DNA of 49,833 nucleotides. Origin: Escherichia phage phi2013. Position 1 is the stretch's first letter, and every line of letters starts with the position of its first letter. Positions 23,627 to 48,740 of this stretch are shown one piece after another. Both the position numbers and the translations under genes were made by a program. The notes under the pieces were generated by a model, which did no database searches, was not told the DNA's origin, and worked only from the letters and a program-made list of their open reading frames with translations. Where the stretch lies: sequence record MT427400.3; one strand, written 5' to 3'.

Positions 23627-24357
23627 TTAGTGCAAAAATTAAACTTGAAATTATGACTCACGCTCAAGAAGAATACCCACGCGAATGCTGCGGGGTAGTC
23701 ACCCAAAAGGGCCGATTGCAAAAATACCATCGCGTTGATAATGTACATCGCGATCCTGAGAATCACTTCATGATGGACGCAGTGCAATACGCATGTATTG
23801 AGGACGACGCAGACTCAACCACGATCGCAATTGTCCACAGCCACACCGGTGACGGAGCTACAACTCTTCCCAGCGCTCACGATACGTGCATGTGTAATGA
23901 GATGGAAGTGACCTGGATTATTGTTAGCGTGCCGGAAGGAGATATGCGCTTTGTGAAGCCTGAGAAATTGCCCCTGATTGGTCGCCCGTGGTCGTTAGGC
24001 TCCTTTGATTGTTACGGCCTTGTGATGGCGTGGCATAAAGAGCATGGCGTAGAGTTGCGCGATCGCCGATTGAATTTTGAATGGTGGAAGCCTGAGCACG
24101 GACTTAATCTCTATCAGGATTATTACAAGCAAGATGGATTCGTAGAGATTCCAGATCAGAATAACCCGTCATTCGGTGATATGGTAATCATGCAGATAGG
24201 GCAAAACGTTCCGGTATGGAACCATGCAGGGATTTACCTGGGAGATAATCAGATCTTGCATCATGCCTTCGGCAAGCTATCTCGTCGTGATATTTATTCC
24301 GGATGGTATCAGGATCACACTGTTTTAATTGTTCGCCATAAGGATCTCAAATTATGA
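23623..24357 (+). CDS. tail tip assembly protein (lambda K-like; JAB/MPN plus NlpC/P60-like)
   Basis: HSHTGDGATTLPSAHD fits JAMM motif HxH...S..D; C-terminal Cys/His-containing half. Confidence 0.7.
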   Translation: MISAKIKLEIMTHAQEEYPRECCGVVTQKGRLQKYHRVDNVHRDPENHFMMDAVQYACIEDDADSTTIAIVHSHTGDGATTLPSAHDTCMCNEMEVTWIIVSVPEGDMRFVKPEKLPLIGRPWSLGSFDCYGLVMAWHKEHGVELRDRRLNFEWWKPEHGLNLYQDYYKQDGFVEIPDQNNPSFGDMVIMQIGQNVPVWNHAGIYLGDNQILHHAFGKLSRRDIYSGWYQDHTVLIVRHKDLKL

Positions 24358-36033: not shown

Positions 36034-38052
36034 GTGACAATGAACATTAAAAAACAGATTGCGTTACTTGGAGAGGACTACATAAAGCGAACTCAGGAGC
36101 GATTCACTGTAGGTGAGGTAGTTCCTTATCCGTATCAGGTTGTTGCTTACGCCGAGATCGCGAAGCGCTTGTCAAATTATGAGCACCCATTCTTCGTTAA
36201 AGCGTCTGTATCCGCAGGCAAGACAATTATTTTCGCTATGGTGGCAAAGCAGTGTCAGAAAATGGGCTTAAAAATGCTTGTCCTGGCTCGACAGGGTGAG
36301 ATTGTCGATCAGGATAGCGAAGAGATCGACAACTTCGGGGTAACGAACTCCATCTTCTCAGCATCGCTTGGAATCAAGTCCTGCTACTTCCCGATCGTGG
36401 TTGGCTCTGAGGGTACGGTTGCAAATGGCCTCGACAATGAGTTGGCTGATTTTGTCCCGCATGTAATTGGGATCGACGAATGTCACCAGGTGGATTGGGA
36501 AGACCTTGCGCAAGCCATCGAGGGTAAGGAAACAATGGAACAGATGAGGGGCGAGAAAGGGAAAATTATCATGGACGGAGATATTCCCCTGATTGGTAAT
36601 GATGGAAAACCTTTGCTTGGAACTAAGCGTAGTCAGTACACGATCGTAATCATGGAAATGATGCGGCGCTGTAAAAAGGTTCACGGGCACGATCTTAGAA
36701 TATTCGGCATGACGGGATCTGAATTTCGTGGCGTAGTTCCTATTCTGGTAGAGAATCCGAAAGCATTGGGATTCTGGCGTGAGCGAGTAACTGATATCGA
36801 CACAAACTATCTGATTGAGTTCGGCTCTGTCGTTCCGACTATATTCGGATCAACAGACGGAGTTCATTACGATCTGGATAAGTTCAAGGCGTCTAGCGAG
36901 GACGGAGTGCAGGACTTTACAGAGAAAGACATGAAGGCTATGGAAGATGAGATCCTTCATGATAAATCTCTGACTCAGCGAATCATGCAAATGGTCGCCA
37001 AAAAGGCAGAAGAACGCAATGCGGTCTTGATTACATGTGCTGGTGTGCGCCACTGCAAAGAGGCAGCGGCAGCACTTCCTCCGGGAAGCACCTATGCAAT
37101 TATTACTGGCGACACAGACAACAAATCGCGCAAGAAGATTCTGGACGATGTAAGGGCTGGGAAAATTAAATACACCTTTCAGGTTATGGCGCTCACTACT
37201 GGCGTTAACGTTCCAAATTGGGATTTCAGTGTCATACTCCGCAAGATAGGGTCGCTCACACTATTGATTCAACTTTTGGGTAGGGGTATGCGTCTGCTTA
37301 AATCCTGGCAGGTTGCTGAGGGAATGGTTAAGCAGGACCATCTGGTATGGGATTTCGCAGGTACGATGGATGAGTTGGGTCAGCTTTATTTCGATCCGAT
37401 ACTTGAGCAGGCGCAATTCCAAAATCGTTTTGAAAACGGCAAAGATCCGAAAACATGTCCGAAATGCGGTTGCGTAAATAGCTTCTATGCTCGACGATGC
37501 GTTAATGTCATTGATGGTGAACGTTGCGATCATTTCTGGACTTCTCAAATTTGTGAGGACCAGGTTGACGAGCGCACCGGAAAAATCCTTGTTAAAGGAT
37601 GCGGTGCAGAGAATGACGTTGTGGCCCGAGTCTGTCGCTGTTGCGATGTTTCTCTTGTTGATCCTAACCTTAAGTTATCCGGTAAGGCGTACACTAAGAA
37701 TGACTGGTACGAGGTCAAGAATTTTGAAGTTACGTTAACCAAAAACCAAAAGGGTGTGATATACAAATACACACTTATTAATGATGAGGGTGACGAGTTC
37801 AAGGCGTATGAAAAATTCTTCCCTGAGTCAGACTCTAAGATTTGCGGTACGCTATGGAAAACGAAAGGAGTATTACCTCACGTATCAGATCCTAAAATGC
37901 GCCGCTACTTTATCGGAATGAAGAACGCCATCAAGATCGTGCAGTACGCACATCATATTGCTCACCCGGTGCGCGTAACTCATCGTCGCAACCAGAAGAA
38001 AGAAGATATTATCTCACGCAAAGACTTCGGTATGGAGGATATCCCGGAATGA
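36034..38052 (+). CDS. SF2 DEAD/DEAH-box helicase with C-terminal zinc ribbons
   Basis: motif I SAGKT, motif II DECH; CPKCGC...C..H and CRCCD clusters; start GTG 36034 or ATG 36040. Confidence 0.7.
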   Translation: MTMNIKKQIALLGEDYIKRTQERFTVGEVVPYPYQVVAYAEIAKRLSNYEHPFFVKASVSAGKTIIFAMVAKQCQKMGLKMLVLARQGEIVDQDSEEIDNFGVTNSIFSASLGIKSCYFPIVVGSEGTVANGLDNELADFVPHVIGIDECHQVDWEDLAQAIEGKETMEQMRGEKGKIIMDGDIPLIGNDGKPLLGTKRSQYTIVIMEMMRRCKKVHGHDLRIFGMTGSEFRGVVPILVENPKALGFWRERVTDIDTNYLIEFGSVVPTIFGSTDGVHYDLDKFKASSEDGVQDFTEKDMKAMEDEILHDKSLTQRIMQMVAKKAEERNAVLITCAGVRHCKEAAAALPPGSTYAIITGDTDNKSRKKILDDVRAGKIKYTFQVMALTTGVNVPNWDFSVILRKIGSLTLLIQLLGRGMRLLKSWQVAEGMVKQDHLVWDFAGTMDELGQLYFDPILEQAQFQNRFENGKDPKTCPKCGCVNSFYARRCVNVIDGERCDHFWTSQICEDQVDERTGKILVKGCGAENDVVARVCRCCDVSLVDPNLKLSGKAYTKNDWYEVKNFEVTLTKNQKGVIYKYTLINDEGDEFKAYEKFFPESDSKICGTLWKTKGVLPHVSDPKMRRYFIGMKNAIKIVQYAHHIAHPVRVTHRRNQKKEDIISRKDFGMEDIPE

Positions 38053-38465
38053 TTACAGACAAAGGTGATTATTTAGAGTTTTACGAGCGAGATCCCAGCG
38101 ACACTCGAAAGGAGGACGCTCATCAGGTGGATTGTGTGTCCTGGCTGAAATACAATTTCCCTCACCTTCTATTTTGGCACACTGTCAATGAAGGTGAAAA
38201 AACAATCACATCAGCGCTCAGGGATGAGCAGGCCGGATTACTTAAAGGAGTGTCGGACTTCGTTATCCTGATTGGTGTTAACTCAAGATACCCGTTTGCA
38301 GCAATCGAACTTAAGCGGGTTAATAAGTCAGGCAAAGGAAAGGCGTCACCAGTCAGCGACAAGCAAAGGGAATTTCTCAGAAAGGTCATGGAGCGTGGCG
38401 GCTTCTCTGCCGTCGCATACGGATTTGAGCAATTCAAGATCGCAATTTACGAAATGATGAAATAG
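38049..38465 (+). CDS. VRR-NUC domain nuclease (PD-(D/E)XK)
   Basis: GVSDFVILIG...AAIELKR (D...ExK) and SDKQREFLRKV...GG pattern. Confidence 0.6.
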   Translation: MITDKGDYLEFYERDPSDTRKEDAHQVDCVSWLKYNFPHLLFWHTVNEGEKTITSALRDEQAGLLKGVSDFVILIGVNSRYPFAAIELKRVNKSGKGKASPVSDKQREFLRKVMERGGFSAVAYGFEQFKIAIYEMMK

Positions 38466-38508
38466 CACTTTTTGTTAAAACTGCCGGAATGGAATCTGGC
38501 ATTATTAT
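38463..38508 (+). promoter_or_regulatory. promoter cassette
   Basis: tagcactttttgttaaaac followed about 22 bp later by TATTAT-like hexamer. Confidence 0.4.
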
Positions 38509-38532: not shown

Positions 38533-39246
38533 ATGAAAGACTTTAATGATATCGAAACTATCGACTTTGCTGAAACTGGTTGCTCATTCACTCGCGAAGC
38601 AATAGCGTTTGGCGGTTATTATCAGGCACTAAAAACTCCAACATGCAAAGAGATTTCAGGCCGTCGATATAAGGGAACCAATACGCCGGATGTTGTTCGT
38701 GATTTATGGTCAACCCCGCGCGAGGTTATTGCGTACCTTGAGGGGCGTTATGGAAAATACGATCTCGACGCTGCGGCAAGCGAAGAAAATAAAGTTTGCG
38801 AGAAGTTTTATTCTCAGGAAACAAACTGCTTAAAACGTTGGTGGGGTAAAAACAAGCATGTATGGTTAAACCCTCCTTATAGTCGACCTGATATATTCGT
38901 CAAGAAGGCGATCGAGCAAATGGAGCACAATAATCAGATTGATATTCTGTTGCCTGCCGATAATTCTACAGCGTGGTTTACTGAGGCGCGACAGCACGCG
39001 GCTGAAATCATCTGGATTGAAGCTGACTTGACTGAGGATATTGACGGCAACGAGTATGCTCGATCCGGACGACTGGCGTTTATATCCGGTGAAACCGGAA
39101 AGGCCGTAGATGGTAATAACAAAGGTTCGGTAATTTTTATCATGCGCGAACTTAAAGATGGTGAGACGCAGCAAACTCACTATATCCCAATCACAAGCAT
39201 TTGCCCTTCGGTGAAAAACAAGCGCGCAAAAGTGAGGAAAGTATGA
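38533..39246 (+). CDS. DNA N6-adenine methyltransferase (phage Dam family)
   Basis: NPPY motif (WLNPPYS); 237 aa. Confidence 0.7.
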   Translation: MKDFNDIETIDFAETGCSFTREAIAFGGYYQALKTPTCKEISGRRYKGTNTPDVVRDLWSTPREVIAYLEGRYGKYDLDAAASEENKVCEKFYSQETNCLKRWWGKNKHVWLNPPYSRPDIFVKKAIEQMEHNNQIDILLPADNSTAWFTEARQHAAEIIWIEADLTEDIDGNEYARSGRLAFISGETGKAVDGNNKGSVIFIMRELKDGETQQTHYIPITSICPSVKNKRAKVRKV

Positions 39247-47177: not shown

Positions 47178-47208
47178 GATTATTTCCTCGTTTGCTGCTG
47201 ATGGGATG

Positions 47209-47252
47209 ACTATACCAGCCATCCCGGATGCGCGTTTAGCAAAAAGTGCTAT
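47209..47252 (-). promoter_or_regulatory. promoter cassette (minus strand)
   Basis: minus-strand tagcactttttgctaaa, 22-bp spacer with gggatg/catccc dyad, TATAGT. Confidence 0.5.
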
Positions 47253-47438
47253 TTAGAATTTTACTTCCTCAACAAGCTCAACCATTTTATAACCCAGGCG
47301 ATATGAGTCGCCGAACAACAACAGACCCATAAATTCATCGTTGGTTATCGACTCCTTACCAACAGTTTTAAGTTCTCCGTTGTGAATCACAGTATCGCCG
47401 ATCTTGATTTCTGATTTATGCACTAATTTCGTTTTCAT
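47253..47438 (-). CDS. hypothetical protein
   Basis: 61-aa ORF. Confidence 0.4.
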   Translation of the reverse strand: MKTKLVHKSEIKIGDTVIHNGELKTVGKESITNDEFMGLLLFGDSYRLGYKMVELVEEVKF

Positions 47439-47453
47439 TTGTTAGCCTGTTAA

Positions 47454-47639
47454 TTAAAAGAACGCTACATAGTTTGCAATACCTTTTGCATCGTCGTTAG
47501 GCATCGCCTTGACAGCCAGGTCATAACCAGCCTCTACCTTCTGCTTTGCTGATTCTTCGTTGTATCCCCAAATAACCAGGATTTTAACTACGTTTTCTTT
47601 GTTCAGAACTTTAAGGTATTTAGTGATGCGACGTGCCAT
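47454..47639 (-). CDS. hypothetical protein
   Basis: ATG 47639 after SD gagga; track start 47654 is TTG. Confidence 0.45.
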   Translation of the reverse strand: MARRITKYLKVLNKENVVKILVIWGYNEESAKQKVEAGYDLAVKAMPNDDAKGIANYVAFF

Positions 47640-47672
47640 TTTGTTTTTCCTCAATCTCGTTTCGATGAGGTA

Positions 47673-47717
47673 ATTATGCCAAATCGCACCGATCGAGTTT
47701 TAACAAAAAGTGCTATT
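47673..47717 (-). promoter_or_regulatory. promoter cassette (minus strand)
   Basis: minus-strand tagcactttttgttaaa, 22-bp spacer, CATAAT. Confidence 0.45.
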
Positions 47718-48404
47718 TGCGATCGCTTTGAAAAATCCACGAGGAGATAAGGAACGTATCAGCTTCGTTTTGGCAGACTTGCCGCCCAGCTTGTTTTGCT
47801 GTGCAGAGTACCCGTCAGGCAGGTTTACAGGCTTCCTTTCTGGCATGACAAAGTCGTCCGAAGTCCAAAGACAAGTTTTCTTCGGGTAAGCATCGCGCGG
47901 CGCAATATACATCGGGAACCAGGGGTGTGCGTCATTCTCAGGAAGATAGCCGCCATACTCCCAGGGATTGAAAGTGTGGTCAGCCTTTCGCCAGGCTGAT
48001 GACAGGACGCTAACCGGATTCTCAATGATGTAAGTCACACCCAGGCTATCACCGATGTTCGCGGCAATCCGGGCGGTGGCAACAGCTTTCTCCTGGAATA
48101 GCGGATCACGTTTACGCTTGCTGGCAAAGTGTCGAGCACCACTAACGGCCAGGTCAGTGCACGGCGGGAAGGCCATAATGAAATCCGGCTTGCCATACAC
48201 ACCCGCGATCGCATCACGTTCGAACGTTTCATCAATGAACACGTTCACATACTCAATGTTGGGATGCTCTACCCGGGCATTGTACTTTGCATAATCTCCG
48301 TGATCGGCTCCGTCAAAGTTGAAGCACATCACTTTATGACCTTGCTTTGCCAGTTCATGACCAGCCAGGCCCGAGCCGTCGAATAGTGACCAGATTAATT
48401 TCAT
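47700..48404 (-). CDS. compact DNA (cytosine-5)-methyltransferase-like protein
   Basis: motif I-like LFDGSG, motif IV-like FPPC, motif VI-like IIENP; SD aggagg; only 234 aa. Confidence 0.5.
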   Translation of the reverse strand: MKLIWSLFDGSGLAGHELAKQGHKVMCFNFDGADHGDYAKYNARVEHPNIEYVNVFIDETFERDAIAGVYGKPDFIMAFPPCTDLAVSGARHFASKRKRDPLFQEKAVATARIAANIGDSLGVTYIIENPVSVLSSAWRKADHTFNPWEYGGYLPENDAHPWFPMYIAPRDAYPKKTCLWTSDDFVMPERKPVNLPDGYSAQQNKLGGKSAKTKLIRSLSPRGFFKAIANSTFC

Positions 48405-48613
48405 TTCGTTACCTCCTGGAAAACAGTTTGTCCGCTATTGGTCAGGAAGCGCCCGATCTTATTCATTGACCGGAACACGCCGATCTGATTCTGATGATTG
48501 TCAGTCGCGAAGTAACCGCCATCAATAAGGTAGATTTCATACACTGATTGATTCGTGAAGCTGTCAGTGCTGACGCTAACACATCGTACGGTACATTCAA
48601 ATTCTGGTTCCAT
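48401..48613 (-). CDS. hypothetical protein
   Basis: 70 aa; stop overlaps methyltransferase start. Confidence 0.45.
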   Translation of the reverse strand: MEPEFECTVRCVSVSTDSFTNQSVYEIYLIDGGYFATDNHQNQIGVFRSMNKIGRFLTNSGQTVFQEVTK

Positions 48614-48645
48614 TGCCTGAGTCCTCTGATTGGTTGATGTGATGA

Positions 48646-48690
48646 ATCATACCCTGCCGACCTGGCTGAGTCGTTAGCAAAAAATGCTAT
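48646..48690 (-). promoter_or_regulatory. promoter cassette (minus strand, approximate)
   Basis: minus-strand tagcattttttgctaa then about 22-23 bp then TATGAT. Confidence 0.4.
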
Positions 48691-48740
48691 TCCAATAATT
48701 GCTCATTATTCCATCAATAGCGGAATAGGTGGAATAATTC

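Follow-up and report, generated by a model that had tools for sequence, protein, structure and literature searches.

A compact cytosine-C5 methyltransferase, probably active and most likely without a partner endonuclease, encoded by Escherichia phage phi2013

The minus-strand gene at 47700..48404 of Escherichia phage phi2013 very probably (we put the probability at about 0.85) encodes an active, SAM-dependent orphan DNA cytosine-C5 methyltransferase (MTase) that belongs to a compact, phage-specific family of ~230-aa proteins. The window analyzed here is the whole 49,833-nucleotide stretch of record MT427400.3. That the gene is a C5-MTase gene is already known, both from the annotation of identical phages and from published work on the activity of the family and its role as a retron trigger. 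Over this region, Enterobacteria phage vB_EcoS_IME167 and Escherichia phage vB_Henu5_2 match the window at 100% identity and JMPW1 (Tunavirus, Drexlerviridae) at 99.9%, and the gene in these records already carries the name “putative site specific DNA methylase” or “DNA methyltransferase”. Our analysis mainly confirms this existing annotation, by which the JMPW1 group of T1-like phages has a compact cytosine-C5 methyltransferase in addition to Dam. The scientific interest that is left lies in the recognition sequence, and in how DNA can be read with almost no target-recognition domain.

The gene, its motifs and its family

The features to which the following sections refer are these:

47700..48404, minus strand: predicted compact DNA cytosine-C5 methyltransferase, phage “Dcm-like”, PHROG 757, 234 aa
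48369..48386, minus strand: motif I LFDGSG, residues 7-12, SAM-binding loop; follows strand beta1 (strand 3-7 in the model)
48159..48170, minus strand: motif IV FPPC, residues 79-82, with the catalytic nucleophile Cys82; placed by conservation, and aligned with FPCQ of E. coli Dcm (hhalign)
48015..48029, minus strand: motif VI IIENP, residues 126-130, with Glu128; placed by conservation, and E128A is part of the dead K42 mutant
47862..47882, minus strand: motif VIII-like K175-K176-T-C-L-W-T, strand beta7; from conservation, model strand 177-181 and the K42 mutant, the assignment to motif VIII being putative
47790..47858, minus strand: variable loop, residues 183-205; least conserved segment in the 26-homologue alignment, pLDDT 68-82
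47733..47759, minus strand: IRSLSPRGF, residues 216-224, conserved C-terminal segment that resembles motif IX
48412..48416, minus strand: Shine-Dalgarno sequence GGAGG, 7 nt upstream of the MTase ATG and within the 70-aa ORF; read from the sequence
48401..48613, minus strand: 70-aa ORF, first gene of the two-gene unit, from the ORF list; PHROG 16851, a PHROG without assigned function
38533..39246, plus strand: Dam-type N6-adenine methyltransferase, the phage's other MTase; Pfam Dam PF05869, E = 2.2e-68

Reading frame and sequence establish 47700..48404 as a real ORF of 234 aa, as the original prediction had proposed, with an ATG start; the strand, which was left unstated there, is minus. LFDGSG, FPPC and IIENP occur in the order and with the spacing of C5-MTase motifs I, IV and VI. 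This assignment, also made originally, holds both in the sequence itself and in the invariance of the motifs among homologues, and given that invariance the three are, at the sequence level, no chance matches. The Dam-type enzyme predicted at 38533-39246 was confirmed by its Pfam match. Between the helicase and Dam genes lies a further gene, at 38049-38465 on the plus strand, whose product has a VRR-NUC domain (Pfam PF08774, E = 1.3e-13).

Conservation was assessed in two alignments, one of 26 homologues and one of 78 representatives whose identity to the query is only 30-55%. In the smaller alignment, G10/S11/G12, P80/C82/T83, E128/N129/P130/V131 and K175 are invariant, as are I216, R217, S218, L219, R222 and G223 near the C terminus. 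Among the 78 representatives, C82, E128 and P130 are still invariant, N129 is conserved in at least 90%, and R217, S218 and G223 are nearly invariant. K175 and W180 show little or no variation in either alignment. The conservation of Cys82, Glu128 and the motif I glycines indicates selection on catalysis.

Profile searches gave an uneven picture. The protein matches PHROG 757 (“DNA methyltransferase”) over its full length (residues 1-231, E = 2.4e-84), yet its match to Pfam DNA_methylase (PF00145) is sub-threshold, with 12.3 bits against a gathering cut-off of 22 (E = 0.11), and covers residues 6-105 only, that is, motifs I-IV. Only 2 of the 78 family representatives reach PF00145 at E < 0.01. 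The search of NCBIfam profiles returned no match for the MTase, and none of the PDB sequence-profile searches, run with the single protein, the 26-sequence alignment and the 78-sequence alignment, gave a significant hit. Because the Pfam, NCBIfam and PDB profile searches found nothing significant, the tie to canonical C5-MTases rests on fold, motifs and PHROG. The original prediction had counted the lack of a profile hit to C5-MTases as evidence against itself. Such a test is misleading, because a hit was nearly lacking for Pfam and wholly lacking for NCBIfam in what is a family member with a characterized relative.

A large protein collection contains 4838 homologues, nearly all of them 225-250 aa long, and the family overall spans ~210-260 aa; an exhaustive profile search recovered 1933 clusters at 50% identity. 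By tblastn, 1517 of 50,697 phage records contain homologues; the hosts of these phages include, among others, Escherichia, Klebsiella, Salmonella, Vibrio, Arthrobacter and Roseobacter. The protein had been called short for a full enzyme, correctly, but the length is family-wide: since its members are all of similar length, the comparison of sequences shows that small size is normal for the family and that the protein is not truncated. Proteins of 1100-1400 aa from uncultured phages (BFVD A0A6J5SE15 and A0A6J5NPY6) contain the compact MTase fold as one of their domains, and one of these proteins is annotated with a helicase/UvrB N-terminal domain.

Predicted fold and DNA-reading region

We modeled the protein with AlphaFold2 on the family alignment (pLDDT 88.3, pTM 0.87). 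The strand order of the model is that expected for a class I methyltransferase, and the predicted structure contains the three-dimensional fold of a C5-MTase catalytic domain. The structures closest to the model are the catalytic domains of DNMT3B/3A, M.HhaI and M.HaeIII. In a Foldseek search of the PDB, the top 39 matches were all DNMT3A/3B entries (best E ~1e-7), and the structural matches in BFVD were phage proteins named cytosine methylases.

These comparisons also bring out where the phage protein departs from its structural neighbors. The DNMT3A/DNMT3B catalytic domain (PDB 6u8p, 4u7t) has the closest fold, but sequence identity to it is only 13-16%, and DNMT3 enzymes are eukaryotic, CpG-specific and oligomeric, with regulatory domains. 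Relative to DNMT3, the phage protein adds a conserved insertion of ~30 residues (146-176), which we place between strands beta6 and beta7. M.HhaI and M.HaeIII, the PF00145 enzymes, have a separate small domain of ~80-100 residues that the phage protein lacks, and they carry PCQ and ENV where the phage motifs read PPCT and ENP.

At the C-terminal end of the insertion, K175-K176 stand just before model strand 177-181, with Lys where motif VIII (Q-x-R-x-R) has Arg; this motif VIII-like placement derives from secondary structure and conservation rather than from a residue-level superposition. From the motif VIII-like strand to IRSLSPRGF there are only ~30 residues (182-212). The 234-aa protein thus has no separate target-recognition domain in the interval from motif VIII to motif IX; M.HhaI and Dcm, by comparison, are 327-472 aa long. 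Within this short interval, residues 183-205, as placed in the 26-homologue alignment, form the sole clearly variable stretch, and this loop would be the only candidate for a minimal target-recognition region. Two types of loop appear among the 26 homologues: “...G-YS-Q..KLGG”, to which the window protein belongs, and “..NPGW.KLGG”, the Bas06/K42 type. The loop reads DGYSAQQNKLGG in the window protein and DKDNPGWAKTGG in Bas06.

A characterized relative, catalytic activity and specificity

The closest experimental counterpart comes from a study of retron Ec86 and phage K42 (Wang et al.; preprint 10.1101/2023.08.16.553469, cited as Cell Rep 2024;43:114857). The K42 genome is 95.4% identical to that of the BASEL phage KarlJaspers (Bas06), all four of the K42 escapers of retron Ec86 had a disrupted 711-bp dcm gene, and expression of K42 Dcm was toxic only when Ec86 was present (10.1101/2023.08.16.553469). 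By LC-MS against a synthetic 5mC standard, K42 Dcm was found to place 5mC on msDNA, and a C82A/E128A/K175A/K176A mutant, whose two lysines the authors aligned to substrate-binding residues of DNMT3A, was inactive (10.1101/2023.08.16.553469). A Dcm of this type is encoded by 34 of 35 Ec86-sensitive phages (10.1101/2023.08.16.553469). Later citing papers treat the triggering of Ec86 by Dcm as established.

The window MTase is 57% identical over 229 residues (E = 5e-89) to the product of the 711-bp Bas06 gene annotated “Dcm-like C5 cytosine methyltransferase”, and it has C82, E128, K175 and K176, all four residues of the K42 mutant, at identical positions. Because of this identity and the four shared residues, we regard it as a member of an experimentally characterized family. 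A copy with 94% identity, likewise annotated “Dcm-like”, is present in the BASEL phage LeonhardEuler. The K42/Bas06 Dcm and the window MTase are alike in belonging to the compact family PHROG 757 (236 and 234 aa, respectively), and in lying in an early leftward operon of a Drexlerviridae genome with small unknown ORFs adjacent and a separate Dam. They differ in that the Bas06/K42 phages are Tempevirinae and the window phage is one of the Tunavirinae, and in the type of variable loop at 183-205, “NPGW” in Bas06/K42 and “GYSxQ” in the window protein. The original proposal of a C5-MTase-like second methyltransferase beside Dam is therefore supported by the 57% identity to the Bas06 enzyme and by the 5mC that LC-MS detected for the K42 counterpart.

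In the mechanism that we propose, the protein would adopt a Rossmann-type methyltransferase fold in which the FDGSG loop holds SAM. A flipped-out cytosine would be attacked at C6 by Cys82 of the PPC motif and protonated at N3 by Glu128 of the ENP motif, and would receive the methyl group at C5. Of the canonical target-recognition domain, only a loop of ~25-30 residues would be left, a reduction similar to that seen in the catalytic domain of DNMT3. Together with the phage Dam, this MTase would presumably methylate the replicating phage DNA as well as the DNA of the host. We infer that the window protein forms 5mC and triggers the retron as its Bas06/K42-type relative does, methylation of the stem-loop of retron Ec86 (Eco1) msDNA switching on the abortive-infection effector as the cost of carrying the gene. 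The likely benefit would be protection from cytosine-sensitive restriction, an anti-restriction role that we infer for the window protein. The BASEL study found no simple link between the MTase genes of Drexlerviridae and resistance to restriction systems. Because its activity is sensed by retron Ec86, this class of enzyme would harm the phage as well as, presumably, shield it from restriction.

Two other readings of the protein itself were weighed. The first, which we consider improbable, is that the protein is active as a C5 transferase but differs in its substrate or in the group that it transfers: RNA or tRNA (as for DNMT2), single-stranded DNA or a hairpin such as msDNA, or carboxy-SAM as the donor (as for the C5-carboxymethyltransferase 8yf3). 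The product identified in the K42 system by comparison with the synthetic standard was 5-methylcytosine, the best structural matches are DNA enzymes of the DNMT3 type, and the gene lies beside DNA-metabolism genes in an operon of a double-stranded DNA phage, although the enzyme may have additional substrates. The second, less probable again, which the original prediction had raised as a non-catalytic relic or a decoy or base-flipping binder, is a protein that has the MTase fold but transfers no methyl groups, either because it is a dead relic or because it serves as a decoy that binds DNA. The very short protein with no canonical target-recognition domain, the sub-threshold Pfam score, the frameshifts in several relatives and the dispensability of the gene all speak for this reading. 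Against it, homologues at 30-55% identity retain Cys82, Glu128 and the motif I glycines with few or no exceptions, the K42 homologue makes 5mC while its active-site mutant is inert, and the window copy is intact, without lesions. The suggestion of a relic or decoy is thus unsupported, and an active DNA cytosine-C5 methyltransferase is the reading that we carry forward.

As to which sequence such an enzyme would methylate, the K42 study took CCWGG over from host Dcm by analogy, its sole support being that msDNA CCTGG mutants lose defense (10.1101/2023.08.16.553469). A literature search for a direct determination of the recognition sequence of any member of the compact phage MTase family found none. 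The phage enzymes are presumed to share the chemistry of E. coli Dcm and the EcoRII-type CCWGG MTases, and the annotators of GenBank and BASEL label them “Dcm-like”. However, the phage protein is half as long as E. coli Dcm (472 aa), lacks a target-recognition domain of the Dcm type, and has no Vsr partner. When the 26-sequence alignment was compared with E. coli K-12 Dcm by hhalign, the probability was 0.2% and only 25 columns around motif IV were aligned. Since there is no similarity to E. coli Dcm beyond motif IV, CCWGG specificity is not transferable by homology, and we rejected it as an assignment on that ground. The number of CCWGG sites in the window is at expectation (101 observed, 105 expected); a comparison of site counts between the window and T1 is without power, the two genomes being ~90% identical.

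Because the window protein is only 57% identical to its Bas06 relative and has the other loop type, its specificity, and hence its ability to trigger the retron, could differ from that of the Bas06/K42 type. A bolder hypothesis, which we hold tentatively and judge unlikely, though well short of negligible, is that the family reads DNA in a manner unlike any characterized C5-MTase, through the conserved 146-176 insertion and the variable loop at 183-205 and with no target-recognition domain. Under this hypothesis, the site may not be CCWGG but something very short or degenerate, or the enzyme may favor DNA in a hairpin or a distorted form, of which the msDNA stem-loop would be an example. If true, it would explain why retron Ec86 is triggered by the phage enzyme and not by the CCWGG-methylating Dcm of the host.

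An accessory cassette, promoter-like motifs and disrupted copies

The MTase gene lies in a cassette with the following parts and signals:

47254..48632, minus strand: 1.38-kb accessory cassette comprising a 61-aa ORF, the 66-aa DUF7421 ORF, the MTase gene and the 70-aa ORF; absent from T1 (blastn)
47454-47654, minus strand: 66-aa ORF downstream of the MTase; Pfam DUF7421, E = 1.5e-41; PHROG 7717
48646..48691, minus strand: promoter-like element upstream of the 70-aa ORF: motif AATAGCATTTTTTGCTAA, 22 nt, TATGAT (motif search)
47700..47717, minus strand: 18-nt motif coinciding with the last five MTase codons and the stop (AAT AGC ACT TTT TGT TAA = NSTFC*) (motif search)

The annotation of T1 likewise contains no counterpart of this MTase gene. 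A three-way alignment shows imperfect direct repeats of ~60 bp on either side of the cassette, at 47195-47253 and 48633-48691, and one chimeric repeat copy in T1 in place of the two. The flanking repeats are copies of the promoter-like element that contains the 18-nt motif, and the arrangement is consistent with gain or loss of the cassette by recombination between the promoter repeats.

The motif itself, AATAGCAC-TTTTT-G(C/T)TAA on the transcribed gene's coding strand, has 17 copies in the window, where 0.03 are expected, and 16 in T1; the sites in the window include 34-51, 1794-1811, 38461-38478, 47236-47253, 47700-47717 and 48674-48691. Without exception, each copy points the same way as the gene downstream of it. 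In most cases a -10-like hexamer comes after a further 21-23 nt, often with one arm of a short inverted repeat on either side of it, and a Shine-Dalgarno sequence and ATG come next. The element is probably a phage promoter or regulatory element, and the copy at 47700..47717 probably drives the downstream 66-aa gene. Because copies of the motif stand before the 70-aa ORF and at the end of the MTase gene, we treat these two genes as one unit. In this early, leftward-strand unit, the MTase would be the second gene, translationally coupled to the 70-aa ORF.

Coupling to the 70-aa ORF had been predicted originally, and the ATGA overlap between the TGA stop of that ORF and the MTase ATG is real; the arrangement is local only, as the gene upstream of the Bas06 dcm gene is unrelated. 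Lacking similarity to that gene, the 70-aa ORF was rejected as a conserved partner of the MTase. The neighboring ORFs encode 61-138 aa and match PHROGs of unknown function only, and no nuclease gene adjoining the MTase was found among them in the PHROG search; the MTase is most likely an orphan enzyme without a partner endonuclease. That it is instead the methylase half of a restriction-modification or toxin-like module, as the translational coupling and the possible toxicity of Dcm itself noted by the K42 authors (10.1101/2023.08.16.553469) might suggest, is the least probable of the alternatives, given that the neighboring products are too small for an endonuclease, that the gene upstream is not shared with Bas06, and that viable phages carry a frameshifted MTase, which would be lethal were a cognate nuclease active.

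Six close Tunavirus relatives have a frameshifted or truncated MTase gene, although some of these lesions could be sequencing errors. One nucleotide is deleted at nucleotide 578 in IME18 and at nucleotide 359 in ADB-2, and one is inserted at nucleotide 538 in phiD2-2. FCWL1 shares a premature stop (…CLWDL*) with phiD2-2, and its homology to the reference ends at nucleotide 540; the copies in LHE71 and vB_SsoS_008 have multiple indels. Because T1 lacks the gene and six relatives carry broken copies, the gene is, to judge from these genomes, dispensable. Of the close relatives, three were isolated on BL21(DE3): the gene is disrupted in two of them (IME18 and FCWL1) and intact in IME167. BL21(DE3) carries a native retron Ec86 (10.1101/2023.08.16.553469), and the disruption in IME18 and FCWL1 fits selection on this host against the trigger of the retron. 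The presence, absence or frameshift of the gene may predict how Drexlerviridae plate on retron hosts such as BL21(DE3).

Several restriction sites are scarce in the window. Among 6-bp palindromes, AAGCTT and CTGCAG are missing (17 and 8 expected, respectively), and GAATTC (1 site, 9 expected) and CAGCTG (2 sites, 13 expected) are rare; GATC is mildly low, at 244 against 308 expected. The missing and rare palindromes look like classic restriction-site avoidance. CCGG itself is over-represented, with 163 sites, but its RCCGGY form (Cfr10I/BsrFI type) is almost absent, with a single site, at 23845, against a Markov expectation of ~28. The flank counts in the window are 69 for YCCGGY, 65 for RCCGGR, 28 for YCCGGR and 1 for RCCGGY, and T1 has the same pattern (62/56/30/1).
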